64,000 nt of DNA from Thiofilum sp. (GCF_016711335.1 NZ_JADJTF010000001.1:2321401-2385400); one strand, 5' to 3'. Counted from the stretch's first letter, positions 44,239 through 62,769 are shown. Notes: a model not told the origin generated them from the letters alone. Numbers and translations: made by a program.

Positions 44239-44364
44239 GGTGCTACCTGTGTATTGGGTGGGATAGATAAGCGGGCGGGTTCGCCGTGCCTACTTGCGCC
44301 GTAGATGTAGTTACGTTTTCCCTGCATATTATCAGGTCAACTCATTGGGGCGATGCTGTAGTGT

Positions 44365-44970: not shown

Positions 44971-45010
44971 AGGATTGCTTCCGCTCTACTGTGTTGATTT
45001 AGTAAATATT

Positions 45011-45284
45011 TCAACAAGTATAGCAAATTAGCGCTGGTTTTGCTGGTAGGCTTGGGCGGTCTGGTGTAGGGCTTTGTCGACGCTGACGGGGGGCAAGCCA
45101 AGCAAGTCGCGGGTTTTGCTGATGTCGATTTGTAGGTGGTCGCAGAAGTGTTGGGTGATGGCGTGCGTGCCCATTAGGATTAGTGCGGTTTCTAGCCAGC
45201 CTTGGGGGATGGGGAGTAAGCGTGCAGGTTTGCCTAAGGCGTAGCTGAGGCATTGCAGGAGTTCGGTGATGGAAAGGTCTTCGC
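45011..45284 (-). pseudogene. C-terminal roughly 90-aa remnant of an NAD-dependent sugar epimerase/dehydratase (GalE/WbpV-like), lacking its N-terminus
   Basis: Minus-strand frame reads [85 protein letters not shown], a typical epimerase C-terminus. No upstream continuation. The ORF-track 80-aa Pro/Arg-rich ORF is in a different frame. Confidence 0.55.
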
Positions 45285-45878
45285 CTAGCTCACAATGGCT
45301 CTAAACGTGCGCATGATCAGTATGAGGTCTAACAGTACGTTGTGGTTGGTGGCATATTGAGTGTAATAGCGAAGCTTAATCGGCAGTATGGTTTCTTTGT
45401 AAGTTTGTTCGGGATTATCAGATTGCCCTAGCAGGGTATTTTCATTTTTGAATTCGATGGATGCTAGATCCGTAATGCCGGGTTTAACGGAGAGTACGAC
45501 TTCACGCAGGTGCTCTGGGTAACAGGCGACGTATTTGGGGACTTCGGGGCGAGGACCGACTAAACTCATCTTGCCGATGACAACATCGATCAGTTGTGGG
45601 AGTTCGTCGAGCTTATAGTAGCGCAGAAACGCACCGGAGCGAGTGATGCGGCTGTCATTGCCAACCGTAATTTGCAGGCCACGCTTTTCTGCATCCGTTA
45701 CCATAGTGCGGAATTTGTGGATGCGGAAGGTTTTGCCGAATTGTCCAACTCGTTCTTGGCGAAAGAAAATGGGACCGAGAGAATCCCACTTAATCCAGAC
45801 TGCAATTATCAGAAAAAGTGGGCTAAGTAAAATTAAACCTACAGTGGCAAAGAAAAAGTCGAAGAGTCGTTTTGACAT
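45285..45878 (-). CDS. Bacterial sugar transferase (PglC / WbaP C-terminal-like initiating phosphoglycosyl transferase)
   Basis: Single re-entrant helix ([19 protein letters not shown]), [10 protein letters not shown], and the [22 protein letters not shown] catalytic motif. Confidence 0.8.
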
Positions 45879-47038
45879 TCTTGTAGAATTCCCTTAATGG
45901 CGTTGATAACTCTTGTTTGGTCTTCATCTGTCATTTTGGTGTAGAGAGGCAAACTCACCGCTTGTTCATACGTTGCTAGACTATAAGGGAAATCTTGTGG
46001 TTGTAAGTGATAGCTATCACGCCAATAGGGATGTAGGTGTAAAGGGATGAAATGAACACTGCAACCAATGCCATGTTCTGCCATCGCTTCGATAAATTGG
46101 TTACGCTCGATACCCATTTGTGGGGTTAAGCGTAGCACATATAAATGCCAAGCGTGTAAATCGCCATCCAGTGCGCTAGGTGGGAAGAGCAGGGGTAAGT
46201 CTGCGAGTTCACGGGTGTAGCGTTCTGCCATTTCCTGACGACGTTGTTGGAAACGGTTAGCTTTCTGTAATTGATGGATACCAAGTGAAGAAGCTAAATC
46301 AGTAAGATTGTATTTGAAGCCGGGGGCTACCACTTCATAATGCCAAGCGGGTTTGTTGGAGGTGTAGCGGTCGAAAGCATCGCGGCTAATACCATGTAAG
46401 CGCATGATTTTGCAGCGGGCGGCTATTTCTGGGTTGCGTGTCACGATCATGCCGCCTTCGCCGGTGGTGATGGTTTTGGTGGCGTAGAAGCTGAAAACGG
46501 TGACATCGCTATCCAGTGAGCCAATTAGCTGATCTTGGTAGCGCGTGGGAAGAGCGTGGGCGGCATCTTCCACTACTTTGAGGTTGTGTTTACGGGCAAT
46601 CGTTAAAATGCTCGTCATATCACAGGCTAAACCGGCGAAGTGGACGGGGATGATCGCTTTGGTTTTAGGGGTAATGGCTGCTTCAATTTTGTTGGGGTCG
46701 ATATTGAAGGTGTTGGGGGCAATATCAACAAAGACAGGGTGTGCGCCTAAGTACCGGATGACTTCGGCGGTGGCTGTGAAGGTGTAGGGTGTGGTGATGA
46801 CTTCATCGCCTGCGCTGATACCGATAGCTTCGAGTGCTAAATGCAAGCCAGCAGTGGCAGAGTTGACGGAAATGGCTTCACAATTACCACCGATGAATTC
46901 AGCGAAGTCGGATTCAAAGCGTTTGGTTTTGGGACCGGTTGTTACCCAGCCTGAGCGCAGAGAGTCAATAACTTCGTTAATTTCAGCTTCGTCAATATCA
47001 GGTAGGGCAAAAGGCAAGAAGTTATTGAGGTTGTTCAT
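45839..47038 (-). CDS. DegT/DnrJ/EryC1/StrS-family PLP aminotransferase (PglE-like sugar 4-aminotransferase)
   Basis: [23 protein letters not shown] (PLP Lys region), and a GxxGxxG-like N-terminus. Confidence 0.8.
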
Positions 47039-47625
47039 GTTTTATTCTCTAATTGCTTTTCCATATAATATTGTCCCTTGATATACCCTGTGATTATGAA
47101 GCCTGATTTTATGTAAAAATTAATAGCTACTAAGTTAGAGCAGGTGACATATAAGCCGAGTCTTTTAATTTGGTTGTGTCTACAGTATTCAAAAGCCCAC
47201 TCCATTAAACAGGTTCCAACTCCCTTGGTATCAGGGCGAGCTGCAATAGATAAGATAATATCACTAGCTTCAACAAATGATTCACTATGTTGAAAACTGT
47301 GCTTGAGTTTTTTTAATAAAATTTTAAGTAGCAGCTTGGGTTTAAAAATAAAGTAAAAGAATAATTCCACTCTTTCCTTTTGTTTGAATTGACTGATTTT
47401 TGATGGCAAATCTTTTCCAAAAAAAAGGAAGCCAAGCAAGTTGTTTTTTTGTTGGTTAAGACAAGCTATGGAAACAACATCATTACTTAAAAATAAGGAG
47501 TAGTATTTTTCTAATAGTTTTTGACTAAGACTTCCTGAAAGATGATCTTTTGGATAGCTTTCTCTATGAGTTTTAGCGACTTCGCTTATCTGGTCTTTTG
47601 TTATCGGCTCAACTAAATACTTCAT
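47035..47625 (-). CDS. GNAT-family N-acetyltransferase (AT-rich, possibly WecD-like sugar N-acetyltransferase)
   Basis: 196-aa ORF with acetyl-CoA motif A region ([16 protein letters not shown]). Low GC matches the following O-antigen block. Confidence 0.55.
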
Positions 47626-48746
47626 TGATTTATCTCGAATGAATTTACTACTGAACTAATTAGCATGGCTTGATCTGTTGTTAGAGTAGGTGATATTGGC
47701 AGACTTATTACTTGACGATGTATCTGTTCTGTCAATAAATATTCATGATTGTTCCACTGCTTAAAGGCTTGTTGTTGGTGAGGTGCTATAGGATAATGAA
47801 TGAGTGTTTGTATGCCAGCAATATTTAAATGTTTTTGTAATGATTCGCGATTTGATGTTCGGATGACATATAGATGAAAAACATGTCCATCTAGTGATTC
47901 TAATGTGCTTTCTAAAGAAATGGGTGTCTGAATGTCTTTATGGTTAATATGCTTGGTGTAAGCAAGTGCAACCTCTTTACGATGTTTTATTTCTTTATCA
48001 AGATACTTGAGTTTTACTCGCAATATAGCCGCCTGCATTTCATCGAGTCGGCTATTTAGACCCTGATAGATATTTTCATATTTTTTATGACTGCCGTAGT
48101 TGCCAATAGCTCTGACCGTATTAGCTAACTCATCATCGTTAGTCGTAACCGCACCTGCATCACCTAATGCACCTAAGTTCTTACCAGGGTAGAAACTAAA
48201 ACCTGAAGCATCCCCCCAGCTACCTGCTCTTTTCCCATTAAGAGATGCTCCATGGGCTTGAGCAGAGTCTTCTAGAACTAACAAGTTGTGAGTTTTAGCT
48301 ATAGCAATAATTTCAGGCATTGGAGCAAGCTGACCGTATAAATGTACCGCGAGTATGGCTTTTGTGTTAGGCGTAATTGCTTGTTCAATTAGATCTGGAT
48401 TGATATTGTAAGTAGTAATGTCAGGCTCTACTAATATAGGTATTAGTCTGTTCTCCGTGATAGCCAATATAGAAGCAATGTAAGTATTTGCTGGAACAAT
48501 AATCTCATCACCTTCCTTAAGCTTTCCTAGTTCTTTCCAAGCTCGTAATACTAGAATGAGAGCATCTAAGCCATTGGCAACACCGATGCAATGTTTAGTT
48601 CCACAATAGTCAGAAAATTCACGCTCAAAGCTGTACACTTGCTCACCTTGAATATACCAGCCAGAGTCAATAACCTGCCTAACTGCTTCTGTTAATTCAT
48701 CCTTGTATTGTGAATTAACTGCTTTTAGATCTAAAAAATTAATCAA
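47622..48746 (-). CDS. DegT-family aminotransferase (FdtB/QdtB-like dTDP-3-keto-6-deoxyhexose 3-aminotransferase)
   Basis: PLP motifs ([18 protein letters not shown]). Sits between FdtC-like and GNAT genes, downstream of FdtA. Confidence 0.7.
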
Positions 48747-49306
48747 GTTGCTTGCCTATTTAAAGTATTTTCGTTAAGTTGATAACCTGCCAAGCAGGCT
48801 GGACACGTATAATTTTCCAGTTTTGTACCACATTCACAAACATATCCATATTGTTTTGCAGGGTTACCATATACTAATGCATAAGGTACGATATTTTTAG
48901 TGACTACACTACCTGCACCTACCATGGCATAAGCTCCGATTTCAATACCACCAATGATCGTAGAGTTCGCTCCAATAGATGCGTGATGATTAATAACTGT
49001 TGATAAAAAGCTGATGGGGCGTTGTTTAGAGCGTGGTGTGAAATCATTGGTGAAAGTTACATTTGGACCAATAAAGACATTATTCCCAACTCGCAGACCA
49101 TCCCATAATTGAACGCCTGATTTTATAGTAACATTATCACCGATCACGACATCATTTTCGATTAATGTTAAAGCATTGATGTTGCAATTATTCCCGATTT
49201 TTGCTTTTGCTAAAATAACGCTGAATTGCCAAATTGTAGTATTTTCACCAATATGGCTAGTTTGCACATCTGCTAGAGGATGAATGTTAGAATTGGTTAG
49301 TGACAT
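48743..49306 (-). CDS. Left-handed beta-helix (hexapeptide) N-acetyltransferase, FdtC/QdtC-like, with a C-terminal CxxC...CxxC tail
   Basis: Hexapeptide repeats ([25 protein letters not shown]...). Ends [17 protein letters not shown]. Confidence 0.65.
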
Positions 49307-49691
49307 TTAAAAACTCTTGATAGTCACGAATATAATCGTTTTCATCGTAGTATTGGTTAGCTAGAACCATCAGTACGCAATCTGAGGTAAAGTTGTGCAT
49401 CTCTCTCCAAGTCAAGTCCTCAATAATTAAACCAACAGTGGAGTTATCGAGCGTGATTTCCTCTCGCTGTTTTCCATTGTCTAATATAAATTGACAAGAA
49501 CCCGTAACACATACAGCTAGTTGTTTTAGATTCCTATGTGCATGAAAGCCACGTGATACACCATGTTTTGTTCCAAAAATATAGTAAACGCGCTTTATTT
49601 CAAAGGGTACACTTTTATTAGCTTCCAGCGCGACTAATGAACCACGTTCATCACCAAGCGGTTTAAAATTTACAGTTTTTATTAAACTCAT
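49287..49691 (-). CDS. dTDP-4-keto-6-deoxyglucose 3,4-ketoisomerase (FdtA/QdtA, WxcM-like cupin)
   Basis: [14 protein letters not shown] ... [25 protein letters not shown] is the FdtA signature. Confidence 0.7.
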
Positions 49692-50587
49692 AGACTTTGC
49701 TCCACTAAACCTATCAAATATTGTCCATAGCTATTTTTGGATAAATTATTTGCAGCCTGCATTACTTGCTCTTGTGTAAGCCAGCCATTTCGCCACGCTA
49801 TTTCTTCTAAGCAGGCTACCTTATAACCCTGACGTTTTTCAATGGTTTCTACAAACATCGCTGCTTCTAACAGACTTTCATAAGTACCTGTATCTAGCCA
49901 AGCAAAACCACGACCTAAAAGTTCAATATTTAAACTACCACGTTCAAGATATAATTGATTTAATGTGGTTATTTCTAACTCCCCTCGATGTGAAGGTTTT
50001 ATCTGTTTAGCAAGTTCAACTACATCACTATCGTAAAAGTATAAACCAGTAACCGCATAGCTGGATTTAGGTTTCGTGGGTTTTTCTTCTATGCTGATAA
50101 CTTTCTTGTTTTTATCAAATTCTACAACACCAAAACGTTCTGGGTCTTTAACTTGATAGCCAAATACAGTGGCACCCATTTTACGGTTGGATGCGCGTTG
50201 CAGAATAGGCGTGAAACCTTGTCCCCAAAAAATATTGTCACCTAAAATTAAGCACACATTATCTCTTCCAATAAAGCTTTCTCCGATGATGAAGGCTTGT
50301 GCTAATCCATCTGGACTAGGTTGAATGGCATAGCTAAGTTGAATTCCGAAATTATTGCCGTCACCTAATAGTTTTGTAAAATTAGGTAAATCTTCCGGGG
50401 TGGAAATGATTAATATTTCACGAATGCCTGCTAACATTAACACAGATAGCGGATAGTAGATCATGGGTTTATCGTAAATAGGCAGTAACTGCTTAGATAC
50501 GCCCTTGGTAATTGGGTACAAGCGAGTACCAGTACCACCAGCTAAAATAATACCTTTCATTTTGTTGCTACTCTTGATTGGTTTCAC
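49688..50587 (-). CDS. rmlA: Glucose-1-phosphate thymidylyltransferase RmlA
   Basis: [18 protein letters not shown] ... LGDNIF ... EKP motifs. Confidence 0.85.
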
Positions 50588-51647
50588 CGAGCCGAGTCAA
50601 CTGGTAATCACCATTCAAGACTCTTTGCCACCATATGGTATTATCTAAATACCACTGTACTGTTTTCTTCATACCACTTTCAAAACTTTCTTTTGGTTTC
50701 CAGTGTAGTTCACGTTCGATTTTACTAGCATCAATGGCATAGCGGCGATCATGGCCAGGGCGGTCTTTTACGAAAGTAATCAGGTCTTCGTAGCGTGCTT
50801 CTTGTGGGCGCAGCTCTTGCAGAATAGTGCATAGTGTTTTCACCACTTGAATATTCTGTTTTTCATTATGACCGCCGATATTGTAAGTTTCGCCAATCCG
50901 TCCCTTGGTTACAACCTGATAAAGAGCATGGGCATGATCTTCTACATACAGCCAGTCACGAATTTGGTCACCTGTACCGTATATGGGGAGAGGTTTGCCA
51001 TGCAGAGCATTCAGGATAATATGTGGTATTAACTTTTCGGGGAAATGATAAGGTCCGTAGTTGTTGGAACAGTTGGTAATAATCGTCGGCAACCCATAGG
51101 TTTTACGCCACGCACGAACGAGGTGGTCGGAGCTGGCCTTACTGGCTGAGTAAGGACTGCTGGGTTCATAAGCCGTACTTTCGGTAAACAGGTGTTTTAG
51201 TGCTTGTCCGTTTTCATTAGGATGAGGTAAATCACCATAGACTTCATCAGTGGATATATGGTGAAAGCGAAAGGTCTGTTTACGCATTTCGTCCAAACCT
51301 TGCCAATAAGCACGAGCCACTTCTAGCAGTTTATAAGTACCAATGATGTTAGTTTCAATAAAGGCAGAAGGACCATCAATGGAACGATCTACATGACTTT
51401 CTGCCGCTAAATGCATAATGGAATCAGGCTGATGTTGGCGAAAGACGCGCTCTAATTCAGTGCGATTACAAATATCCACTTGTTCAAAAAAATAGCGATT
51501 TGAATCACTAACCTTTATGAGGTTTTCAAGATTACCTGCGTAGGTTAACTTGTCCAGATTGATAACACTATCATCAGTATTTTGAATAATGTAGCGAATA
51601 ACTGCTGAGCCAATAAAGCCCGCACCACCAGTAATTAATATTTTCAT
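50568..51647 (-). CDS. rmlB: dTDP-glucose 4,6-dehydratase RmlB
   Basis: [14 protein letters not shown] ... [12 protein letters not shown] (YxxxK) ... [18 protein letters not shown]. Confidence 0.85.
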
Positions 51648-52447
51648 AAAAATCTTTTAATGAACTTAAAATCGGAAATTTTTGAAATGATGTGATCGTA
51701 AAAATAATGAAGCAAAATAGCTCTTAACCATACATTAGGGCTGACCAGATGGTAATTTTTTGCAAGAATAAAAGCTTTCTGTTGAAAAATTTTTCTTCTT
51801 CCAGCAGTTATCATCGTATTTTGATTATGAGTCCTGTACATTAAAAGAGGCTCTGCAACATGTGTAAATTCAGTTTCGGCAGCGGCACGTATAACAAAAT
51901 CCCAATCCTCCTCACGTAGATTCTCATCAAAACCACCTATTTCATCATAAAGTTTTCTTGAGAAAAGCATACTGCCAGCAGGGACATGTTGCCTGATGAA
52001 AACAGAATTTAAAATTTTTCCCGACAATGGCTTGGCAGGAAAAAGACGAATAATTTTCCCTGAGTCAGAAACGAATTCCTGGGCCTGAGAAAAGCAAAAA
52101 TGAGAGTTTCTATTATTTTTTAGCACTTCAATCTGTTTTTCAATTTTAGTTGGTTGCCAATAATCATCTGATGCCAGTAATGCCACATAGTCACCTTTTG
52201 ATAGTTCACGTATACCACGATTTAGTGTTTTGCATACGCCAATGTTACTTTGTGAAATAAAGTGAAAAGATTTTTTTTCGGCTAATTCAGTCAATAATTC
52301 AATAGAGCCATCTCTTGAACCATCATCAATAACTATTAGTTCAATATTTTGATAGGTTTGACTAATTACGCTGTCAATGGCATTAATAATGTATTTCTCA
52401 TGGTTATAAGACGGTATAATGACACTGACTAAAGGATTCTTATTCAT
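51644..52447 (-). CDS. Family 2 glycosyltransferase
   Basis: [14 protein letters not shown] ... IDDGSRD ... LASDDYWQP (DxD) motifs. Confidence 0.75.
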
Positions 52448-52449
52448 TT

Positions 52450-53568
52450 TTATTCTGCTAAGATAGATTGGTAAAATTTCAGTAGTTTATTGCTTTCTGA
52501 AGACCAATTGTATTTTTCAATAACAGCCTGTCGAGCATTTTTCCCCATTTCTAGCATAAGATTAGGATTAGATAGCAGTTGTTCGAGTGCTTGGCTAATA
52601 TCCTTAGCTGATTCAGGATTGACACAAATTCCACAATTGTTGTCTTCTATTATTTCCTTCCATAGTGGAAAGTTGGATGCAACAATTGGAAGACCAGCAC
52701 TCATGTATTCAAACATTTTATTGGGTTGCGATTCGATGTGATTTGGTGCAGGGAGAAAAGTAACAGCAGCTACTCTCGATTGAGACAGTAGTTTTGCTAT
52801 CGTTTCACGATTTACTTGACCAAAATAATCTACACAAGACCAACCCATACTTGTTTTTAGCTTTTCTTCGATAGCTTTATTTGCAAAAGTACCTGCTATA
52901 GCCATAGATTTTTGAGAGCCTAATGCACAAGCATCCACAAGAAAAGAAACCCCTCTTATTTCAGATATTGCTCCAATGTAAATAATATCGTATTGCTTGC
53001 TGTGCTGTTCTATTGAATTAAAGTTTAGTTCGTCCACAAAAGGATAGTTATTTATGTCGATAGACTTTGCACCTGCATTACAGAAATGATGATTAATAGA
53101 TGGTGTGGCAGCAATAATTCCATCAAGCTTTCGTATTGATTTTTTTTCATAATATTTGTATGCAGCAGCGATTAATGCTCTAAAATATTTTGGTATATAT
53201 GGCTTTTCACTAATATCGTCGGCATAGTTTTCATGTGAATCAAAAATAACTTTAGAGCCGGGAAATTTACTTTTTATTTTTAGACCAATGTGAATCAATT
53301 CTGGATCATGAAAATGATAAATATCAGCACGCAAATTTGATGCCATGCGATAGACTTTTTTTGTAGAAAAAAACATGCGAGCCAAGCGATTTCCTGCAGG
53401 TTTTCCAGCATCAATAATATTTACACCTTGCTTGACCTCGTTACCTAAACCATCTGCTACAACAAAAGTAACATCGTAGCCATGTTGAGCAAGTGTGACA
53501 CACTCTTTCAAAAATATTCTTATGTCATATCTTTGGTGAACGGATGAAAAGTGAACTATTTTTTTCAA
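52450..53568 (-). CDS. Family 4 (GT-B) glycosyltransferase
   Basis: C-terminal EYMSAGLPIVASN plus E-x7-E-like motif. Confidence 0.75.
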   Translation of the reverse strand: MKKIVHFSSVHQRYDIRIFLKECVTLAQHGYDVTFVVADGLGNEVKQGVNIIDAGKPAGNRLARMFFSTKKVYRMASNLRADIYHFHDPELIHIGLKIKSKFPGSKVIFDSHENYADDISEKPYIPKYFRALIAAAYKYYEKKSIRKLDGIIAATPSINHHFCNAGAKSIDINNYPFVDELNFNSIEQHSKQYDIIYIGAISEIRGVSFLVDACALGSQKSMAIAGTFANKAIEEKLKTSMGWSCVDYFGQVNRETIAKLLSQSRVAAVTFLPAPNHIESQPNKMFEYMSAGLPIVASNFPLWKEIIEDNNCGICVNPESAKDISQALEQLLSNPNLMLEMGKNARQAVIEKYNWSSESNKLLKFYQSILAE

Positions 53569-54638
53569 GACGAAATCCTTTCACGCAAATGTTGCACAAT
53601 TCTTAATGAAGCTTGACCTCCACCATATAATTGATGGGGATCCTGCACTTTTCTACCGATGTTACGTATCACTGCATCAGCGATTTTTAGGTTATCCGCG
53701 CCAACTAACTCGTTGACACCCATTTCAATGAGTTCTACCCATTCAGTTTGATCACGCATAGTGATGCAGGCTTTGCCAAAAAAGAATGCTTCCTTTTGTA
53801 CTCCACCACTATCAGTGAGTACTAATTGACACTTATCCAATAGCCAGACCATTTCAAAATATCCTACTGGATCGACCAAGCGAACATTCAGTTTTAGCCC
53901 TTGCTGTGTAATGAGTTTTCGTGTGCGGGGATGCAAGGGTAAGATAACGGGTACTTGTTCTCGATGAATCTGATTAAGAGCTAGTACAATATTAGCTAAA
54001 CGTTCTGGATTATCAGTATTTTCAGCTCGATGAAGAGTGGCTAGAACGAATTGTTCTGGTAGAGAAATATTAGGTGGCGCAATAGCATTCTTGGAGAATA
54101 GCAGAGCAGCATCTTGCATAACATCGCCAACTTTTAACACTTCCACATTTTTTGTAGCAAAGCCTTCATTATTCAAGTTTTTAACAGCAGTATCAGTGGG
54201 GCAAAACAGCAAATCACTAATTTGATCCGTCAATATTCTGTTGATCTCTTCAGGCATTTGCATATTGAAGCTCCGCAACCCTGCTTCTACATGAGCCACC
54301 GGAATATGCAGTTTGGCGGCAGCTAATGCACCTGCTAACGTGGAATTAGTGTCGCCATACACCAGTACGCGATCAGGTTTGTGGGATAATAATGCCTGTT
54401 CGATTTCGGCAAGCATACGACCAGTCATTTCCCCATGACTACTACTGTTGATATTTAGTTTAATGTCTGGTTTCGGAATGCCAAGCTGATTGAAGAAAAT
54501 ATCTGACATATTAGCATCGAAGTGTTGACCGGTATGTAGCATAATTTCTTTGATGCCACTGGTTTTTCGAATAGCATGAGAAATCACACTGGCTTTGATA
54601 AATTGAGGGCGTGCCCCAATAATGGTGATTATTTTCAT
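53565..54638 (-). CDS. wecB: UDP-N-acetylglucosamine 2-epimerase (non-hydrolysing) WecB
   Basis: MKIITIIGARPQFIK ... HVEAGLRS ... TDSGGVQKEA. Confidence 0.8.
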   Translation of the reverse strand: MKIITIIGARPQFIKASVISHAIRKTSGIKEIMLHTGQHFDANMSDIFFNQLGIPKPDIKLNINSSSHGEMTGRMLAEIEQALLSHKPDRVLVYGDTNSTLAGALAAAKLHIPVAHVEAGLRSFNMQMPEEINRILTDQISDLLFCPTDTAVKNLNNEGFATKNVEVLKVGDVMQDAALLFSKNAIAPPNISLPEQFVLATLHRAENTDNPERLANIVLALNQIHREQVPVILPLHPRTRKLITQQGLKLNVRLVDPVGYFEMVWLLDKCQLVLTDSGGVQKEAFFFGKACITMRDQTEWVELIEMGVNELVGADNLKIADAVIRNIGRKVQDPHQLYGGGQASLRIVQHLRERISS

Positions 54639-54693
54639 AAATAATACTCTTGAATTCAATTATCAATTTCATTCTATCGAAAAGTTGTATGCA

Positions 54694-55974
54694 TTAACGG
54701 AAAAATGAATGCAGATGAGAGGTAGATTTTTTGAGGTTAGTATATTTTATTAGCACATTTCGATTTTGTTTTTCATGTAATACACAAGTGATATTAAGTA
54801 GGACAATGATTGACATCAATTGATACCCTGAAAAAATATTATTTGTCGTCATGGTTACACAAGAAAAAATAATAAAAATGAACAGTGTTATGCCCCACTG
54901 GGATGAAATATTACGCATTGCAAGGCGTAAAAGATAAATTATATAAAATCCAAATAGAAAAATACCTAAAATTCCATACCTTTGAATTATCAAAGCGTAT
55001 TCAGAGTCTATAACAGTTGAAAATTCAGACTTGGCTGGTCCCATACCAAATAATGGTGATTCATAAAAACGTTCTATGGCTAAGGAGAAATTATCTAATC
55101 TAATGTTCAAACTTTCATTTTCCCCCTCAGATGTTAGTTGAGCACCCAAATAAATATACTGTAGCTCCAATGAAAATACTAAGAAAATGATTGAGGTAAT
55201 GAGTAATGTAAGTAAAATAATTTTAATTATGAAATTTAATTTATAGAAGAATAAAAAATAGAAACTGAATGTTGATAGAAATGCACCCAAAATGGTTCTA
55301 CTTTGAGTTGACAATATCAAAAAGGAAAATAGCAATGCAAAAATTAAGTATTTATATGTTTTTTCTTTTAAAAATAATGTGGTAAAGTAAATACTAAAAA
55401 AGCTAGCAATGACTGCGCCGATATTAGGATCAGAGCCAGTAATGGTTATTCGATATCCAGCAAGAGCAGATGCCAAATGTGAACTATCCGCACCTAAGTA
55501 TTTCTTCAGGAGCCATTCCGCAAGGAAAGGTATATTTAGAACTTGAATGTAGCCGATCAATAAAACAAGTATGGCAGACCAAAATAGTAATTTATGGAGA
55601 TGTGATAAGCTCGCTATTCCAATAAAAGTTATAGCCATCATGTAAGGTACAAACTGTAAGTATTTTATTGACTCAATAATATCCCCAGAAACAGGCGATG
55701 AATAACCAGCCGCCCAAGAAAATAAAGCAGAAATCATAACCATTAACCCTAATGCTAATGGCATAAGTGATGCAGTATTAAAAAAAGATTTCTTTGATAA
55801 ATGTAATAAAATTATTAAGAAAACTATGGGGCTTATGAGTGTGACGAGATAAATATGTATATCACCAAAGGCTATGGAGGGTAATGTAATTGAGGATAGT
55901 AGCCCTAAAAATAGTAAATTAACCATTAATTTATTTGGCCGAGTTGTTTTCTTGATATTTTTATCGTACTGCAT
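54694..55974 (-). CDS. O-antigen polymerase (Wzy-like) multi-TM protein
   Basis: 426-aa, very AT-rich, 10-12 TM helices with a large periplasmic loop. Located between wecB and wzx. Confidence 0.5.
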   Translation of the reverse strand: MQYDKNIKKTTRPNKLMVNLLFLGLLSSITLPSIAFGDIHIYLVTLISPIVFLIILLHLSKKSFFNTASLMPLALGLMVMISALFSWAAGYSSPVSGDIIESIKYLQFVPYMMAITFIGIASLSHLHKLLFWSAILVLLIGYIQVLNIPFLAEWLLKKYLGADSSHLASALAGYRITITGSDPNIGAVIASFFSIYFTTLFLKEKTYKYLIFALLFSFLILSTQSRTILGAFLSTFSFYFLFFYKLNFIIKIILLTLLITSIIFLVFSLELQYIYLGAQLTSEGENESLNIRLDNFSLAIERFYESPLFGMGPAKSEFSTVIDSEYALIIQRYGILGIFLFGFYIIYLLRLAMRNISSQWGITLFIFIIFSCVTMTTNNIFSGYQLMSIIVLLNITCVLHEKQNRNVLIKYTNLKKSTSHLHSFFR

Positions 55975-56068
55975 TTTAATTTAAGTGGACTTTATGGGGA
56001 TTTAAATAAATTAACTTTTGATTTTTTAATTTTACAAAAAAGTGTTTCTGTATTACTTGAGTGTGATT

Positions 56069-57469
56069 TTACGTAAATGTAAAATTTATTGCTTGTCGTG
56101 CAATGTCACGAAAAATGAACAAAGCAAATACTAATAAAACACCCCATAACACCATAAGCATTACAACATGGCTTTCACCCAATAAGCTAGCAGCAATAGC
56201 TAACATCACGCACATAAGAGAGAAAAAATAGAGTGCTAATCTGGGTATTGGTTGCCACACCAATATGGCAAATTCAGTGCGGCATACAAAGAATATCCAG
56301 AAAGAAGCACAAGTACTCGCTGCTGCACCCGCTGCACCGTAATGGGGAATCAACAGGTAATTTCCTATAAGATTTGAAATTAAAGCGATTACTGAAGCAG
56401 CTAGCGCAAAAAGCGTTTTCTTAGTGATACCAATACCTACAACCGTAGTTTCAGACAGGGTATAAAGCAATGGAAATCCAAGACAAGCGGCAATAATGTA
56501 CTGTATGTTATGATAAGCATCTGGCAAGATAAGGTTTATCACCCATGAAAATAGCCCAACAAAGCAAAAGATCAATATTACAATAAATAACACATAATTC
56601 GTAACTTGCTGCACTTTATCCAAATTTTTTCCTGAACTTACCCACTTATAAACAGTGGGAGCCCATACTGTCGTGAAAATACTTTGAAAAATAGTCGCTA
56701 CTGCGGCAAAACTTACGGCGACTGAATAAATACCTAGTTCTTCATAGCTAGATAAAGCACGTAAGAAAACTTTATCTACTGAGATTAACCCCCAATAAGC
56801 TAATCCTCCAAAAATAAGTGGGATGGAATAGCGTAACATGCTAAGAATTTTTTCGTTATCAAATTTTTTCGGAATAGCTGCTAAAATTTCTTTGCGTGTA
56901 TTCCATCCATAAATTATGCAGACTAATAAAATAGATAGAGTGTGTGCTGCGATAATTTGCAGGGTTGTGAAGTTAGAGTCTAGTAATACATATGAACTAA
57001 TTAGGAAAAGAAAAAACACTTTTGGTAGAACTTGGCTCATTGAAAAAGCCAGCCCTCTTTCTTGCATTCGTAATATCAGGGATAAAAAGCGAGAAATAAA
57101 TGAGGCTAGCAGGCAGAGCAAGATTAAGATGCCTAAATGCTTATCATCCAAATTAAATAGCCATATCGATATTTTTTCTGGTTGAAATGAAAAGATCACA
57201 AGTGTAAATGAAAGTAGTAAAAAGCCAACTCCTATAGTGTTTTTTAGTAGCAAGGGTGTATTGTTGGATTCATGAAACTCGCGAACGTAGGCTTGATCTA
57301 GTCCTAAGCTGAAAATTAATAGTACAAAACTAATGGTTACTTGCAGCATAGACAAGCGACCAATGTCATCTGGCGAAAAAAACCATGTAATAACAGGTAA
57401 GGTAATTAGACCTATTGCTGCTGAACCAATAGGTCCAATAGAAAAATGTAAAATCTTTTTAGTGTTCAA
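56069..57469 (-). CDS. wzx: Wzx-type O-unit flippase (MOP/oligosaccharide flippase family)
   Basis: 466-aa ORF with 12-14 TM helices and polysaccharide-biosynthesis-protein topology. Confidence 0.7.
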   Translation of the reverse strand: MNTKKILHFSIGPIGSAAIGLITLPVITWFFSPDDIGRLSMLQVTISFVLLIFSLGLDQAYVREFHESNNTPLLLKNTIGVGFLLLSFTLVIFSFQPEKISIWLFNLDDKHLGILILLCLLASFISRFLSLILRMQERGLAFSMSQVLPKVFFLFLISSYVLLDSNFTTLQIIAAHTLSILLVCIIYGWNTRKEILAAIPKKFDNEKILSMLRYSIPLIFGGLAYWGLISVDKVFLRALSSYEELGIYSVAVSFAAVATIFQSIFTTVWAPTVYKWVSSGKNLDKVQQVTNYVLFIVILIFCFVGLFSWVINLILPDAYHNIQYIIAACLGFPLLYTLSETTVVGIGITKKTLFALAASVIALISNLIGNYLLIPHYGAAGAAASTCASFWIFFVCRTEFAILVWQPIPRLALYFFSLMCVMLAIAASLLGESHVVMLMVLWGVLLVFALFIFRDIARQAINFTFT

Positions 57470-57512
57470 CTAAAGACCTTGAGTAAGTATTTTTTACGCT
57501 TTTGATTGGGCT

Positions 57513-58643
57513 TCATGCGAAAAACTCGCTAACCGCTTGAGTAACAGCTTGTTGAGTTTTACGTTCCATTCCAAACCAAATAGGTAGTCTGACTAAGCGT
57601 TCGCTGTCTTGCGTTGTATAGCGGTCAGTACCATGAAACCGCCCAAACTGCTTACCCGCTGGTGCACTGTGCAATGGAATATAATGGAATACAGAAAGAA
57701 TATTGTTTTTACTCATATGTGCTAAGAATGCTGAGCGTTGCTCTATATCTCTGCATTTGAGGTAAAACATATGCCCGTTTTGCTGGCATTCGGCTGGAGT
57801 AATGGGGAGTGAAAGTATCCCGTGCTGTTGCAAATCATTGAAAGCAGTATAGTAGTGATCCCACGTAGTTAAGCGATTGTTATTGATAACTTCTGCACGT
57901 TCAAGTTGTCCCCAAAGGTAAGCTGCTTGGATTTCTGAGGGTAGGTAACTACTGCCAATATCAACCCAAGTATACTTATCTACCATGCCACGAAAGAAGA
58001 GACTACGGTTTGTGCCTTTTTCGCGTATGATTTCAGCACGCTCTATAAACCGCTCATCATTGATTAATAGTAAGCCACCTTCACCGCCGCTGGTATAGTT
58101 CTTGGTTTCATGGAAACTGTATGTGCCGATATGTCCAATTGTGCCTAAAGGTTTGCCTTTATAGGTTGCCATCATGCCTTGAGCAGCATCTTCAACAACA
58201 AACAAATTATGACGCTGGGCAATGTCCATGATGGTGTCCATTTCACACCCAACGCCTGCATAGTGTACGGGGACAATGGCTTTTGTTTTGGGAGTAATTG
58301 CCGTTTCAATAAGGGTCTCGTCAATATTCATGGTATCAGGGCGAATATCCACGAAAACGATCTTCGCCCCTCTTAGCACAAAAGCATTGGCAGTACTTAC
58401 AAAAGTATAGCTAGGCATGATGACTTCATCGCCGGGTTCAATACCGATGAGGATAGCCGCCATTTCCAGCGCATGTGTGCAGGAGGTCGTAAGCAAAGCT
58501 TTTTTGCAGCCCGTTGTCTCCTCAAACCAGCGATGGCAACGTTTGGTGAATTCGCCGTCACCTGAGATTTTCGAGCTTTTCATTGCTTCCAGAACATATT
58601 GCTCTTCATTTCCTGTCAGAGGTGGTTTGTTAAATGGAATCAT
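57513..58643 (-). CDS. dTDP-4-amino-4,6-dideoxyhexose aminotransferase (WecE/VioA-like, DegT family)
   Basis: SYTFVSTANAFVLRGAKIVFVDI ... YSFHETKNYTSGGEGG, related to the WecE family. Confidence 0.75.
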   Translation of the reverse strand: MIPFNKPPLTGNEEQYVLEAMKSSKISGDGEFTKRCHRWFEETTGCKKALLTTSCTHALEMAAILIGIEPGDEVIMPSYTFVSTANAFVLRGAKIVFVDIRPDTMNIDETLIETAITPKTKAIVPVHYAGVGCEMDTIMDIAQRHNLFVVEDAAQGMMATYKGKPLGTIGHIGTYSFHETKNYTSGGEGGLLLINDERFIERAEIIREKGTNRSLFFRGMVDKYTWVDIGSSYLPSEIQAAYLWGQLERAEVINNNRLTTWDHYYTAFNDLQQHGILSLPITPAECQQNGHMFYLKCRDIEQRSAFLAHMSKNNILSVFHYIPLHSAPAGKQFGRFHGTDRYTTQDSERLVRLPIWFGMERKTQQAVTQAVSEFFA

Positions 58644-59203
58644 TTTTGATACTCCTCAAGAAATTGTTTTTCCAGAACTAATAGTTCTTTACTGCGATCT
58701 TTAATTTTTTTAGCGGGATTGCCAACATAGATGCTCCATGCTTCAGTTGACTGACGCACTAACGACATTGCGCCCACTGATGTTCCTTCGGCTAAGGTAA
58801 CGCCGGGCATTATCATTGAGCCAGCTCCAACAATAGAGTGTTCGGCAATGTTAACTGTTGATATAAACTCATTTTTATATTTTTTAGATATATTAGAGTT
58901 TGTCATGGTCATTCCACTGTAATCGTCCGACTGTGTGAATATTTTTACGCCGTATGCAAAAGTACAAAAATCACCCACTTTCATGCCTAGTTGACCGCCT
59001 GCAAATAAACACATTGGTGTTATGTGTACAAATCTTCCGATTTTGATTTTTCCAGAAATTACACAAAAATCATCTATTCTTGAGTTGTCACCAATTTCTA
59101 TTTGATTATGATTATAGATGCTGGCTTTTTTGCTGATTTTTACGTTTTTACCGATTTTCTTAAAGCCAAGTTCTAATAGTTCTTGTTCAGTGTAATAAGC
59201 CAT
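58640..59203 (-). CDS. Hexapeptide-repeat sugar N-acetyltransferase (VioB/WeeI-like)
   Basis: LbH repeats IGDNSRIDDFCVISGKIKIGRFVHI... Overlaps the stop/start of flanking genes (operon). Confidence 0.65.
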   Translation of the reverse strand: MAYYTEQELLELGFKKIGKNVKISKKASIYNHNQIEIGDNSRIDDFCVISGKIKIGRFVHITPMCLFAGGQLGMKVGDFCTFAYGVKIFTQSDDYSGMTMTNSNISKKYKNEFISTVNIAEHSIVGAGSMIMPGVTLAEGTSVGAMSLVRQSTEAWSIYVGNPAKKIKDRSKELLVLEKQFLEEYQK

Positions 59204-59207
59204 GGCT

Positions 59208-60266
59208 TTAATCCTCGAAAATTTTTTGTAACTGTGATTTGAGCGTTTCTTTGTTAAAATAATTTTTTATAATTTCAGAGTTCTTCAGAGATTGCTCTGA
59301 ACTCAGGCTAGTCAGATTTTCTTCTGAACCAATGTTGTCAAAATTAAAAATTTTAAGGTTCATTTCTGAAAGGGTTTGCCAAGGTGTTATATCATTGCGC
59401 ATATAGACCTTCTTACCTAAGCCCAACAGCGAGATGGTGTTACCCATTGCTTGCTGGCGTTTGTGTGCGAAAATCGCGATGTCTATATTGGCAAGAAGCT
59501 CTAAATATTTATCGAATGGCATAAATTCTGTGAGGGGAATGAATTTTTCACCAAAAATTGCTTTACCTTTTTCGATAATCTGTTTGGCATGGTTTTGATC
59601 ACCGTAAGAGAGTGGGCAGTATATTTTTATATCTTCGTTCTTGTAAGGAACTAACTTTTCAAGAATTTCTTCATGGTTGTTGCTGGGATCGGCGGAGTTT
59701 CCTATCAATATATTGGTACTTTGATCATGTCTTGGGGGCAGATCGTAATCAGTAAAAGTATTGCTAAGATACATGATGCACTCATGATATTTACCTTTTG
59801 TACCGTACCATTGTTGTGCTAGGTGATAATCGCCTTCAATGTAAGTTACAAAATTACCTATACGTTTTATGATAAAACTGCGAAGTAGCTCTTTTAGTTT
59901 ATAGTTTCTGTCATTATTGCCTAATTGATGGTAGTAAAGATCACCACCCCACATAACCCAGTAGCATTTTTTTAGAATCCAAGGTGTAAAAAACAATAAG
60001 ATAACTAACTTTATATCAAATAAACCATGCAGAATAACTTTATCAGCTTGATGTATTTTCAGTAGAGCTTGGAGATAATATGAAAGCCCATGTCTAACTG
60101 TTTTCTTCGCAATATATATATTTTTATCTTTTTTTATAAGCTCTTCTTCCATGCCGCTAGTGAGTAGAAAGAAATGCTTATAATAATCAAAATTTTCTTT
60201 GATTAGATTAATGAATTTCGGAGAAAAAGTGTTGCAAGGTAGAATGTGAAGGATTTTTTTTGGCAT
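59208..60266 (-). CDS. GT56 4-alpha-L-fucosyltransferase-like (WecF family, dTDP-Fuc4NAc:lipid transferase)
   Basis: VMWGGDLYY, ILIGNSADPSNNHEEILEKL, PLSYGD; the equivalent E. coli WecF segments are HIWGADLY, ILVGNSGDRSNEHIAAL and PMGY (from memory). Confidence 0.6.
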   Translation of the reverse strand: MPKKILHILPCNTFSPKFINLIKENFDYYKHFFLLTSGMEEELIKKDKNIYIAKKTVRHGLSYYLQALLKIHQADKVILHGLFDIKLVILLFFTPWILKKCYWVMWGGDLYYHQLGNNDRNYKLKELLRSFIIKRIGNFVTYIEGDYHLAQQWYGTKGKYHECIMYLSNTFTDYDLPPRHDQSTNILIGNSADPSNNHEEILEKLVPYKNEDIKIYCPLSYGDQNHAKQIIEKGKAIFGEKFIPLTEFMPFDKYLELLANIDIAIFAHKRQQAMGNTISLLGLGKKVYMRNDITPWQTLSEMNLKIFNFDNIGSEENLTSLSSEQSLKNSEIIKNYFNKETLKSQLQKIFED

Positions 60267-60305
60267 TTGGCGACTAGTTAATTTTAGGTTTGAGGTTGGC
60301 TTTAT

Positions 60306-61883
60306 TTATTTGCTCAAGATTATCTGTACATAATCCTGTTGAATGGCTGTCAAATCCGCCCCCATCGGCAAACTCATCACACGCTGCGCTCTATCCTTCG
60401 CAATCGGCGTACAATCCCCACAACACAAATCCCGATAAGCAGGCTGTTCATTCAAAGGCACAGGATAATGCACCGCTGTTGGAATCCCAGCTTCCCTAAA
60501 CCGCGCTTCCACCTCACTGCGGTTTTCCACCAACACCGTATACTGCGCAAACACACTCGTCCGATCATCCCGCTGCTGTATTCGCTGCACCCCAGCCTCA
60601 TCCATTAAGGCATTATACCGCTGCCCAATGACAACCCGCTGCTCCACTTCCCAATCAAACCGTTCCAGCTTCGCCAGCACCACCGCACATTGCAGCGTAT
60701 CCATCCGCCCACCCACACCCACACGGGTATGGTAATAACGCCGACTCTGCCCATGAATCCGAATCTCCCGACAAGCCTGATAAATGGCATCATCATCGGT
60801 AAAAATCGCCCCACCATCCCCATAACAACCCAAGGGCTTACTCGGAAAAAAACTAGTACAACCAATCGTAGAAAGATGACAACTCTTCCTACCCTTATAC
60901 GTCGCCCCGAAACTCTGCGCTGCATCCTCAATCACTGGCAAATTATACTTCGCCGCAATCGCATTAATCTCATCCATATCCGCAGGTTGACCATACAAAC
61001 TCACTGGCATAATCGCCTTAGTCCGTTCAGTAATTTTAGCCTCAATCAAACCCGCATCCATATTACAAGTATCTGGCTCAATATCCACAAACACCGGCTT
61101 TGCACCCAACAACACAATCACCTCAGCCGTCGCCACAAAGGTAAACGGCGTGGTAATCACCTCATCCCCCGCACCAATCCCCAATGCCATCAAGCTGATC
61201 AACAAGGCTTCCGTGCCACTGGCCACCGTAATGCAATGCTTCGCACCCGTATAAGCGGCGAGCTTCTTTTCCAGTAGTTCCACTTCTGGCCCCATGATAT
61301 ACGTGCCATGTTGCAAAACCGCATGAATATTACGCTGTAATTGCGGACGGATGGCACGTTGCTGGACAGCCAAATCAATAAACGGCATCTTTTCTGGCTT
61401 TTTTGACCATGCTGCCAAACCTTGCTCCAGTAACTCTTTCGGATGCAAGGCAAGTATCTTTGAGGATTTCAAAAACCACTTATCACGGGTGATAATGACC
61501 GGGTTAGGCAAATACTGCTCTGCCAGAAAACCAATTAACTGATCTTCCAGATCATCCCCGACCTCAGCATCCAGCGTAGCCAACTCATCCCCCACTTGTG
61601 GCAGTGGCTTGAGCAAGCTACTCAATTCTTGTAACAAGACACGAGCCGCCTGAATCGATTCACGCCGATTCTGAGCATCTTTTGCCAAGGCACGCTCAAG
61701 CAAGTAATACACCGTACTCAAGGTATGGGGTGCATACCAAGCCTCTACTTCACCATTACGTACCAACTCCAGCACGCTCACCGCATCTGCGTAATAAGCC
61801 CCGCGTGCAGCCAAAGCATCAACCAAGACATTGGTATCAAAAACGAGCTGTATTTGAGTGTGTTTATAGCTATTAACGACCAA
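60306..61883 (-). CDS. In-frame fusion ORF: N-terminal PIN-domain (VapC-like) plus C-terminal WbpE-like UDP-2-acetamido-2-deoxy-3-oxo-D-glucuronate aminotransferase
   Basis: N-terminus LVFDTNVLVDAL...LEDQLIGFLAEQ...ITRDKWFLK (four PIN acidic positions). From MPFIDLAVQQRAI onward near-colinear with WbpE (LQHGTYIMGPEVELLEKKLAAYTGAKHC ... DAAQSFGATYKGRKSC ... FFPSKPLGCYGDGGAIFT). The junction contains a T6 run (61399-61404); one extra base would create a stop just after the WbpE ATG. Confidence 0.6.
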   Translation of the reverse strand: MVVNSYKHTQIQLVFDTNVLVDALAARGAYYADAVSVLELVRNGEVEAWYAPHTLSTVYYLLERALAKDAQNRRESIQAARVLLQELSSLLKPLPQVGDELATLDAEVGDDLEDQLIGFLAEQYLPNPVIITRDKWFLKSSKILALHPKELLEQGLAAWSKKPEKMPFIDLAVQQRAIRPQLQRNIHAVLQHGTYIMGPEVELLEKKLAAYTGAKHCITVASGTEALLISLMALGIGAGDEVITTPFTFVATAEVIVLLGAKPVFVDIEPDTCNMDAGLIEAKITERTKAIMPVSLYGQPADMDEINAIAAKYNLPVIEDAAQSFGATYKGRKSCHLSTIGCTSFFPSKPLGCYGDGGAIFTDDDAIYQACREIRIHGQSRRYYHTRVGVGGRMDTLQCAVVLAKLERFDWEVEQRVVIGQRYNALMDEAGVQRIQQRDDRTSVFAQYTVLVENRSEVEARFREAGIPTAVHYPVPLNEQPAYRDLCCGDCTPIAKDRAQRVMSLPMGADLTAIQQDYVQIILSK

Positions 61884-62181
61884 AATAACGTTCCTCTAGG
61901 GCATCCTGTAACATTTGCTCATCATCACCAATACTAGAGCTAGGGCGCGTCAAAGCTAATCTACCCAACAGTTGATTTAACCGCTCCTGAAGACTTCCGG
62001 GCTTTGCTGGCGGTACTTTTCCTAATGTTTCAGGTACAGGCAAATCGACGAACCAATCGCGAGCTTCCAGAAGTGCCTCGTCCGGTATTTCCACCTGGTA
62101 GCGCATGGGGGCATCGGGTTTTAAATAAATCGGATGTACAAACTTTACCTGACCGTGTTGAACAATAATTTCTGCTTGCAT
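61873..62181 (-). CDS. DUF104-like putative antitoxin (upstream partner of the PIN domain)
   Basis: ATG at 62181: MQAEIIVQHGQVKFVHPIYLKPDAPMRYQVEIPDEALLE resembles DUF104 antitoxins (VYENGVLKPLE..L.EG..V.V.I). Overlaps the PIN start by 11 nt. Confidence 0.45.
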   Translation of the reverse strand: MQAEIIVQHGQVKFVHPIYLKPDAPMRYQVEIPDEALLEARDWFVDLPVPETLGKVPPAKPGSLQERLNQLLGRLALTRPSSSIGDDEQMLQDALEERYFGR

Positions 62182-62767: not shown

Positions 62768-62769
62768 AC

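Follow-up and report, generated by a model that had tools for sequence, protein, structure and literature searches.

A variable AT-rich central cassette in a Wzx/Wzy-type polysaccharide locus of an uncultured Thiofilum

The O-antigen and capsule loci of E. coli and Salmonella, of P. aeruginosa and of Acinetobacter (the K loci) are characteristically low in GC and are remodelled by recombination in their flanks. In such loci co-oriented wzx, wzy, glycosyltransferase and nucleotide-diphosphate (NDP)-sugar genes form alternative sets between conserved flanks, and the locus described here is built in the same way. It lies in a 64,000-nt stretch of a Thiofilum sp. metagenome-assembled genome (MAG; GCF_016711335.1 NZ_JADJTF010000001.1:2321401-2385400), hereafter the window, where all genes beyond about 32.9 kb are on the minus strand, forming a single large polysaccharide locus. 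Its centre, at positions 47035-60290, is a run of 14 co-oriented genes, overlapping or separated by gaps of at most 95 nt (mostly overlaps and tight spacing), all of which are glycan genes by profile search. We refer to this run as the cassette. The architecture is of the well-known variable O-antigen/capsule type, and the sugars are individually known.

We consider it quite probable that the cassette forms the centre of a Wzx/Wzy-dependent surface-polysaccharide locus, that this centre is exchangeable and determines the serotype, and that it is set within a widely conserved frame. The upstream part of this frame would be wbpA-wbpB-wbpD-wbpE, for UDP-2,3-diacetamido-2,3-dideoxy-glucuronic acid (UDP-GlcNAc3NAcA), and the downstream part the genes for a 4-aminotransferase (pglE-like), a PglC-type transferase (pglC-like) and a PglF/WbpM-type dehydratase (pglF-like). 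The same account, graded as a whole, takes the cassette to be a mosaic that would specify, together with its flanks, the repeat unit predicted below.

Base composition and alternative cassettes

47035-60290, minus strand: AT-rich variable central cassette of a Wzx/Wzy-type polysaccharide locus (GC 0.367; GC at third codon positions, GC3, 0.30); homology with relatives ends at 47020-47041 and at about 60347

No other 13.3-kb stretch of the window has so low a GC as the cassette; the rest of the window stands at 0.442. In 400-nt windows, a GC of 0.49-0.53 gives way to 0.32-0.33 at about 47.0 kb, and one of 0.31-0.34 to 0.47-0.55 at about 60.3 kb; these sharp steps fall at the start codon of the pglE-like gene and just past the wbpE stop. 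The 14 cassette genes have a mean GC3 of 0.304, compared with 0.382 for the 32 open reading frames (ORFs) at 1-31 kb (Mann-Whitney p=2.7e-4), these 31 kb of the same window being the only background used for composition. For the 8-9 adjoining flank genes GC3 is 0.46-0.47 (p=6e-6 against the cassette), and overall GC is 0.47 for those genes and 0.44 for the background. An initial annotation had described the block as markedly more AT-rich than its flanks, and sliding-window GC and GC3 statistics bear this out; a uniform GC profile, named beforehand as the outcome that would count against a swapped cassette, was not seen. At the same time, the export genes at 31-41 kb have a GC3 of 0.32, near the cassette level (p=0.36 against the cassette), and the whole locus is a compositional mosaic.

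Comparison loci and contigs are given here by L-numbers. The closest flank homologues come from Thiolinea and Thiothrix MAGs, and among the Thiotrichaceae relatives flank DNA identity is 77-92%, the cassette being what differs. On the upstream side, L169, a contig of a Logan assembly (DRR424546), has wbpA, wbpB in intact form (97% amino-acid identity) and wbpD, and shares with the window the small ORF and the fusion of wbpE with a PIN-like domain. Its DNA matches that of the window at 89-92% identity between 64000 and 60347, stopping about 40 nt short of the wbpE stop, and beyond this breakpoint it encodes a Wzx, an SDR enzyme, a DegT aminotransferase, two unknown genes, an Epimerase_2 gene and a NeuB-family gene. 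L004 has wbpE (81% amino-acid identity) and the pglE-like gene (88%) around a different AT-rich cassette of 8.3 kb, with another Wzx, a PF14296-type Wzy, an SDR enzyme, two GT4 glycosyltransferases, a PglD-like acetyltransferase and a methyltransferase. On the downstream side, DNA homology in L001-L006 starts at 47020-47041, at the pglE-like start codon, and extends through the pglC-like gene, while the 10 kb upstream of the pglE-like gene differs and is AT-rich again. The initial view of the block as a swapped cassette is upheld by these alternatives next to the same flanks, and a block conserved and syntenic without alternatives, also named beforehand as telling against it, was not found.

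Farther afield, the frame wbpB-wbpD-wbpE, 5-8 kb of variable sequence and pglE-like-pglC-like-pglF-like recurs in a Nitrospirae MAG, Chromobacterium, Crenobacter, Vogesella and others, with a strongly AT-rich centre in L056 and L163. A compact version, wbpB-wbpD-wbpE ... GT4 ... pglE-like/pglC-like/pglF-like, is seen in Crenobacter and Chromobacterium (L036, L053, L057, L058, L060 and L072) with GC even throughout at about 0.64-0.66; wbpE and the pglE-like gene lie 5.5-7.2 kb apart there, and the interval includes a GT4 gene whose product is 38-40% identical to that of the window. These compact loci may come close to a minimal version of the locus.

At the pglE-like end the cassette meets its flank in a 4-nt ATGA stop/start overlap, and at the wbpE end a 39-nt spacer separates the two. 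We found no junction repeats at the cassette ends, no integrase or other mobility genes and no tRNA at the junctions, and no Rfam hits, so that delivery by a mobile element (a genomic island) was rejected. By analogy with O-antigen and capsule loci, the most economical mechanism would be replacement of the centre through homologous recombination in the conserved flanks.

We weighed the exchange of the cassette against three other accounts. Under the first, the cassette would be ancestral and vertically inherited, with an AT-richness intrinsic to membrane proteins, low expression or relaxed selection and with no exchange. Its most AT-rich genes are indeed those for Wzy, Wzx and the glycosyltransferases, the adjoining export genes are as AT-rich as the cassette, and AT-rich centres occur in many unrelated loci of the same type, so that low GC could be a property of the gene class. 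However, soluble enzymes of the same family differ in GC3 between cassette and flank: among the DegT aminotransferases, FdtB-like has 0.27 and WecE 0.41 in the cassette, while pglE-like has 0.49 and wbpE 0.51 in the flanks; among the left-handed beta-helix (LbH) acyltransferases, the cassette genes have 0.26 (FdtC-like) and 0.31, and WbpD in the flank has 0.44. With the FdtB-like, FdtC-like and RmlA (0.29) genes so far below their flank paralogues (0.44-0.51), membrane-protein bias is no explanation. Moreover, the centres hold unrelated genes despite flank DNA that is 89-92% identical, and homology ends abruptly at gene boundaries. L169 and L004 largely refute an ancestral cassette, which we regard as very unlikely.

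The second account gives the flanks an equal part in the contrast: the GC-rich flanks would be foreign too, the frame horizontally spread, and the 32-64 kb region a mosaic in which the cassette is not the sole acquired part. Flank GC3 (41145-47038 and 60306-63836) is 0.46, above the background value of 0.38 (p=7e-4), so that the step is two-sided and part of the contrast is due to the flanks. Homologues of the pglE-like aminotransferase are 65-76% identical in Planctomycetes, Nitrospirae, Acidobacteria, Firmicutes and Neisseriales, those of WbpB, WbpD and WbpE are 59-81% identical in Nitrospirae and Chromobacterium, and Uma2 genes are inserted in the flank. The high GC3 of the flanks, together with homologues 60-80% identical across several phyla, suggests that the frame itself may be horizontally spread. 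On the other hand, the flanks are kept in Thiotrichaceae at 77-92% DNA identity where the centre differs, and the compositional argument depends on a background sample of 31 kb. Foreign flanks are a possibility to be taken seriously, if not the one we favour, and they are compatible with exchange of the cassette.

The third account, a cassette of another organism misjoined to the contig during assembly or binning, draws on the MAG source and on a frameshift in wbpB that hints at sequence error. It faces an independent Logan assembly of SRR28062878 (L081), in which 14.8 kb of the locus are 100% identical, including the upstream junction (wbpD, PIN-wbpE, wecF onward). That junction is present also in a separate NCBI assembly with matching gene order at the locus (GCA_049643105.1, L165). 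Moreover, the downstream junction is the 4-nt ATGA overlap, and the cassette epimerase would functionally complement the flank pathway. We hold an artefact to be extremely unlikely, and return to the cassette as an exchanged centre.

Sugar pathways and the predicted repeat unit

Gene families were assigned by NCBIfam, Pfam and PDB searches, some families coming from the gene calls. The genes are listed in the direction of transcription, all on the minus strand.

Upstream flank:
63839-64000, minus: C-terminal 54 codons of a WbpA-like UDP-sugar 6-dehydrogenase (open frame and position; L169 has a 433-amino-acid UDPG_MGDP_dh gene there)
62770-63836, minus: WbpB/WlbA UDP-GlcNAcA 3-dehydrogenase (PDB 3Q2I, 340 bits)
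62192-62767, minus: WbpD/WlbB UDP-GlcNAc3NA N-acetyltransferase (PDB 3MQG, 330 bits)
61873-62181, minus: 102-amino-acid ORF before PIN-wbpE (zero family matches)
60306-61883, minus: WbpE/WlbC aminotransferase with an N-terminal PIN_3-like domain of about 165 amino acids, fused in frame (PF13470 and PF01041; WbpE 3NU7, 430 bits over residues 167-511)

Cassette:
59208-60266, minus: WecF-type GT56 glycosyltransferase, TDP-Fuc4NAc transferase family (NF002756, 458.4 bits, cut-off 457; PF07429 in gene calls)
58640-59203, minus: AntD-like LbH N-acyltransferase (best PDB matches 3VBI-3VBP, 168-173 bits)
57513-58643, minus: WecE, dTDP-4-keto-6-deoxyglucose 4-aminotransferase (TIGR02379, 683 bits, cut-off 435; NF008687, 657 bits, cut-off 375)
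56069-57469, minus: Wzx flippase (PF01943 Polysacc_synt, E=1e-19)
54694-55974, minus: probable Wzy polymerase, Wzy_C (PF04932; TIGR04370 under cut-off)
53565-54659, minus: 2-epimerase of WbpI/WlbD type (PDB 8SXV/8SXY, 381 bits, vs E. coli WecB 1F6D, 175 bits)
52450-53568, minus: GT4 glycosyltransferase (weak GT4 matches in NCBIfam; Glyco_transf_4 and Glycos_transf_1 in gene calls)
51644-52447, minus: GT2 glycosyltransferase (GT2-type NCBIfam matches; PF00535 in gene calls)
50568-51647, minus: RmlB, dTDP-glucose 4,6-dehydratase (NF007490, 677 bits, cut-off 649; TIGR01181, 513 bits)
49688-50587, minus: RmlA, glucose-1-phosphate thymidylyltransferase (TIGR01207, 515 bits, cut-off 361)
49287-49691, minus: FdtA-type dTDP-4-keto-6-deoxyglucose 3,4-ketoisomerase (PF05523, E=6e-50)
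48743-49306, minus: FdtC/QdtC-class 3-amino-sugar N-acetyltransferase, LbH (PDB 4MZU 198 bits, 7S43 178, 3MQG 112, QdtC 72)
47622-48746, minus: FdtB/QdtB-class dTDP-3-keto-6-deoxyhexose 3-aminotransferase (PDB 5U1Z 442 bits, QdtB 3FRK 364)
47035-47625, minus: GNAT acetyltransferase (PF00583; weak WecD and PseH matches)

Downstream flank:
45839-47038, minus: UDP-4-keto-sugar 4-aminotransferase, ArnB/PseC/PglE class (PseC model 402 bits, cut-off 423.5; ArnB structures 311-318 bits)
45285-45878, minus: small PglC-type polyprenyl-phosphate sugar-phosphate transferase, initiating, 197 amino acids (TIGR03025 C-terminal region, 216 bits)
41835-43844, minus: PglF/WbpM/CapD-type membrane UDP-GlcNAc 4,6-dehydratase, 669 amino acids (PseB and FnlA domain matches, N-terminal membrane region)

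Homology confirmed most of the enzymes first proposed for the block: RmlA, RmlB, FdtA, the FdtC-like and FdtB-like enzymes and the GNAT; WecE, an LbH acyltransferase and WecF; Wzx and Wzy; GT2 and GT4. The initial annotation had also seen several independent amino-sugar pathways in the cassette, with WecB making N-acetylmannosamine (ManNAc) in one of them. The pathways are there, but not all of them are independent of the flanks, since the cassette epimerase appears to complete a flank pathway. This enzyme passes the generic TIGR00236 model (332 bits), but its closest solved matches, 8SXV and 8SXY, are UDP-2,3-diacetamido-2,3-dideoxy-glucuronic acid 2-epimerases, and the 381 bits against these compared with 175 bits against WecB speak against a UDP-GlcNAc 2-epimerase. 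Its homologues in Marinobacter-type loci that also carry WbpABDE are 68-77% identical, the one in the M. salsuginis WbpABDE locus 77%. Most likely, then, it is the fifth step of the flank pathway, a UDP-GlcNAc3NAcA 2-epimerase supplying 2,3-diacetamido-2,3-dideoxy-mannuronic acid (ManNAc3NAcA). The GT4 gene overlaps the epimerase gene by 4 nt, and GT4 homologues (38-47% identity) recurrently adjoin WbpBDE or epimerase genes.

For this UDP-ManNAc3NAcA pathway we could match WbpD, WbpE and the epimerase. The WbpABDE flank previously proposed holds for WbpD and WbpE; of WbpA only the last 54 codons are in the window, and wbpB is split into ORFs of 237 and 115 amino acids by a 1-nt deletion at about 63125, as judged against the intact gene of L169. 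All of the 120 wbpB homologues listed are unsplit, at 337-359 amino acids, and the frameshift may be either a true inactivation or a MAG sequence error.

The second pathway joins WecE to an acyltransferase and a transferase. WecF is 45-70% identical to its homologues in other WecF-LbH-WecE modules, and the Enterobacterales WecF models give it 72-104 bits, far under their cut-offs. No GNAT-type WecD lies beside WecE; the neighbouring acyltransferase resembles AntD, and in L082, L083 and L167 an LbH gene sits between WecF and WecE without exception. The AntD-like enzyme would be the one that acylates dTDP-4-amino-4,6-dideoxyhexose. The earlier label, LbH acetyltransferase, is right about the fold; the acyl group is not necessarily acetyl, AntD itself being an N-acyltransferase of the anthrose pathway. 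One of the matched structures, 3VBN, is AntD of B. cereus (PMC6031040).

The third pathway is a complete and contiguous set for dTDP-linked 3-acetamido-3,6-dideoxygalactose (Fuc3NAc) or 3-acetamido-3,6-dideoxyglucose (Qui3NAc), comprising RmlA, RmlB, isomerase, aminotransferase and LbH acetyltransferase. The ketoisomerase scores 167 bits against FdtA (2PA7), 136 against WlaRB (5TPU) and 119 against QdtA (4ZU7), scores that do not set the stereochemistry of the product.

The fourth pathway belongs to the downstream flank, where the pglE-like protein is 84-95%, the pglC-like 67-83% and the pglF-like 60-64% identical to its counterparts in relatives (Thiolinea and Thiothrix MAGs for the first). 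The initial annotation called this branch bacillosamine-type, a loose label: PglF-type and PglC-type enzymes are present, matched at family level only, the pglE-like aminotransferase is nearer ArnB and PseC than C. jejuni PglE, and no PglD-type acetyltransferase (PglD_N plus LbH) is found in the window, while L004, L166 and L167 have one. The cassette GNAT, whose stop overlaps the pglE-like start, may acylate the UDP-4-amino sugar as a PglD substitute, since it is the sole acyltransferase without another assignment; against the WecD model it reaches 29.5 bits (cut-off 219).

Wzx is 52-55% identical to the Wzx proteins of L166 and L167 and matched no NCBIfam family at E<=1e-5, WzxE included. 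For Wzy, encoded by the lowest-GC gene of the cassette (0.31), NCBIfam gave solely a generic repeat-unit polymerase model, under cut-off, and no WzyE match; its nearest named homologues, from Marinobacter and Halomonas, are 49-52% identical and adjoin wzx.

The cassette would be a mosaic of at least two modules, wecF-LbH-wecE-wzx-wzy-epimerase-GT4 and GT2-rmlB-rmlA-fdtA-fdtC-fdtB-GNAT. For the first, wecF-LbH-wecE occurs at 77% DNA identity in the metagenomic contig L082, its order is kept in L083 (Thiomicrospira) and L167, and L166 and L167 have counterparts of wzx, wzy, GT4 and epimerase that are 44-77% identical, the last two being reversed in the window. For the second, L030 (Desulfogranum) and L115 have an FdtC-FdtA-FdtB set 1.8-2.2 kb upstream of the same aminotransferase family.

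Cassette and flanks together encode four aminotransferases (WbpE, WecE, FdtB-like, PglE-like), four acyltransferases (WbpD, AntD-like LbH, FdtC-like, GNAT), four sugar pathways, and one initiating transferase with three glycosyltransferases. These one-to-one counts predict a tetrasaccharide repeat solely of acylamido sugars; from gene content we infer how transferases pair with sugars, which acyl groups are present, in what order the sugars stand and where the polymer goes. The PglC-like enzyme would start on undecaprenyl phosphate (Und-P) with UDP-2-acetamido-4-acylamido-2,4,6-trideoxyhexose, a sugar that the PglF-like dehydratase and the aminotransferase would supply, probably together with the GNAT. 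ManNAc3NAcA, from WbpA/B/E/D and the WbpI-type epimerase of the cassette, would be added next, probably by GT4 (given the overlap of its gene with that of the epimerase). WecF would then add 4-acylamido-4,6-dideoxygalactose (of the Fuc4NAc type) by analogy with the enterobacterial common antigen (ECA), and GT2 would add Fuc3NAc or Qui3NAc. Wzx would flip the unit and Wzy polymerise it, after which the neighbouring Wza/Wzc-type genes may export the polymer.

Several points weigh against this reading of an exchanged mosaic and its repeat. The comparison genomes are other species or genera rather than strains of one species, and scanning metagenomes with the pglE-like protein brought up relatives at no more than 85% identity. 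No donor lineage emerged: outside this population, the cassette genes reach only 45-87% identity with their nearest relatives, which gives the transfer neither a date nor a direction. The flanks, with their GC3 above background, are compositionally atypical too. On the side of the glycan, WecF passes NF002756 by only 1.4 bits, and the 3-amino sugar and the 4-amino UDP-sugar are assigned without stereochemistry. A genuine wbpB frameshift would break the ManNAc3NAcA branch and make the predicted unit wrong, and the epimerase could then act on another substrate.

The locus's most unusual feature, if a peripheral one, is the PIN-WbpE fusion, which is a recurrent architecture. It is also called in L169 (523 amino acids), L081 and L165, and it aligns end to end with at least 11 divergent representative clusters (40-56% identity, 503-553 amino acids), in which D16, W49 and Q115 of the N-terminal domain are nearly invariant. 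An accidental toxin-antitoxin insertion was rejected, given that the architecture recurs in many divergent clusters.

Neighbouring genes and the destination of the polymer

44365-44970, minus: Uma2-family gene (putative restriction endonuclease, PF05685)
41145-41744, minus: second Uma2-family gene
40484-40867, minus: ComEA-type helix-hairpin-helix gene, GC 0.38
32894-40258, minus: export/assembly module of CpsB-type phosphatase, Wza/EpsE-like, Wzc-like, a 440-amino-acid protein and a Wzy_C protein (Pfam and NCBIfam; GC3 0.32)

The two Uma2-family genes bracket the pglF-like gene, and the first of them is an insertion in the conserved flank, because the pglC-like and pglF-like genes directly adjoin in L002, L005 and L006. 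The ComEA-type gene stands between the pglF-like/Uma2 region and CpsB-Wza-Wzc in an otherwise glycan-only locus. In the export module, the Wza/EpsE-like exporter is small (244 amino acids), the Wzc-like chain-length/tyrosine-kinase protein is unusually long (1003 amino acids), and the 440-amino-acid protein had zero family matches. The second Wzy_C protein of the locus (32894-34285) could be a ligase, a polymerase or an oligosaccharyltransferase, and no waaL or pglL assignment could be made in the window. A PEP-CTERM/XrtA exopolysaccharide system was rejected for the export genes, all matches falling far under curated cut-offs. A promoter/terminator scan gave no signal above that of shuffles, and the pglE-like protein, WbpD and the truncated WbpB had no counterpart in exact-sequence look-ups, perhaps due to other start-codon calls or pseudogene annotation.

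The initial annotation had spoken of an O-unit. With CpsB, Wza-like and Wzc-like genes immediately downstream this is not established, and the adjoining Wza/Wzc-type genes make a capsule or exopolysaccharide (EPS) as likely as an O-antigen. A related alternative is that the locus serves protein O-glycosylation or a sheath or EPS rather than the O-antigen of lipopolysaccharide (LPS), so that the cassette would define a glycan variant and not an LPS serotype. PglC/E/F-type genes, two Wzy_C proteins and the CpsB/Wza/Wzc module would suit this, the Wzy_C family also includes O-oligosaccharyltransferases and ligases, and many Thiotrichaceae are filamentous, some of them sheathed. Against it, a Wzy beside a Wzx in the variable region is typical of polymerised repeat units. 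We regard a destination of this kind as possible, on balance somewhat doubtful.

Going further, the polymer could be ECA-like outside Enterobacterales, that is Fuc4N(acyl)-ManNAc3NAcA-(2-acetamido-4-acylamido-2,4,6-trideoxyhexose) extended by Fuc3NAc, and, once exported by Wza/Wzc, could give a filamentous sulfur bacterium its capsule or sheath material. Separately, the PIN-like domain and the small upstream ORF, which coincide exactly with the recombination boundary, could play an active part in the glycan pathway as a regulatory or addiction element and not be a passive fusion. These readings are speculative and seem to us improbable.

Comparison with known systems

Thiotrichaceae are filamentous sulfur bacteria of environmental and industrial relevance (activated-sludge bulking), and to our knowledge nothing is known of their glycan genetics; a literature search on Thiothrix sheath polysaccharides brought up nothing relevant to this locus. 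What the present analysis adds is a documented case of cassette exchange, probably flank-mediated, in a surface-glycan locus of this family. The recurrence in several phyla of the frame wbpABDE ... aminotransferase/PglC-like/PglF-like with a variable centre should aid locus annotation and the prediction of glycan variants from metagenomes. It does not change the understanding of how surface-glycan diversity arises.

One known parallel is the ECA (wec) cluster of E. coli, with which the locus shares RmlB/RmlA, WecE, an N-acyltransferase, a GT56 WecF, Wzx, Wzy, a 2-epimerase and a UDP-sugar 6-dehydrogenase, and by this analogy the Fuc4NAc-type sugar would go onto the mannosaminuronic acid. Unlike the ECA cluster, it has an AntD-like LbH enzyme in place of a GNAT WecD, no WzxE or WzyE match, the WbpABDEI diacetamido uronic pathway, initiation of PglC type rather than by WecA, and a variable rather than conserved locus. 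Among E. coli sugars, D-Fuc4NAc and D-ManNAc3NAcA are rare and Fuc3NAc is occasional (PMC7685785).

The uronic acid genes resemble those of P. aeruginosa O5 (wbp) and Bordetella (wlb), with WlbA-, WlbB- and WbpE-type enzymes matched at 330-430 bits and the epimerase at 381 bits. They differ in that the epimerase stands apart from the other four, in the AT-rich cassette, that WbpE bears a PIN-like domain and that wbpB is frameshifted. The Fdt (Aneurinibacillus), Qdt (Thermoanaerobacterium) and WlaR (C. jejuni) pathways use the same five enzyme types, which are contiguous here; the FdtA structure scores best (167 bits vs 119 for QdtA), scores which do not fix product stereochemistry.

Two Marinobacter-type loci, L166 (M. 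salsuginis GCA_009617795.1) and L167, follow much the same gene order, with WbpABDE, the RmlBA-WecF-LbH-WecE set, Wzx, Wzy, GT4, the epimerase and a PglC/E/F-type end, at 44-77% amino-acid identity. They are without the Fdt module, GT2 and GNAT, have a PglD-type acetyltransferase and an aminotransferase of a different lineage (33% identity), and have a GC of about 0.50 with only a mild central dip.

P. aeruginosa O-antigen clusters end in wbpM, and the Thiofilum locus has a WbpM/PglF-type dehydratase at its 3' end. It departs from the described O-antigen and capsule loci in its uncultured host, in having wbpABDE and aminotransferase/PglC-like/PglF-like as the two sides of its conserved frame, and in dividing one pathway between its parts, with the epimerase in the variable region and the remainder in the flank.

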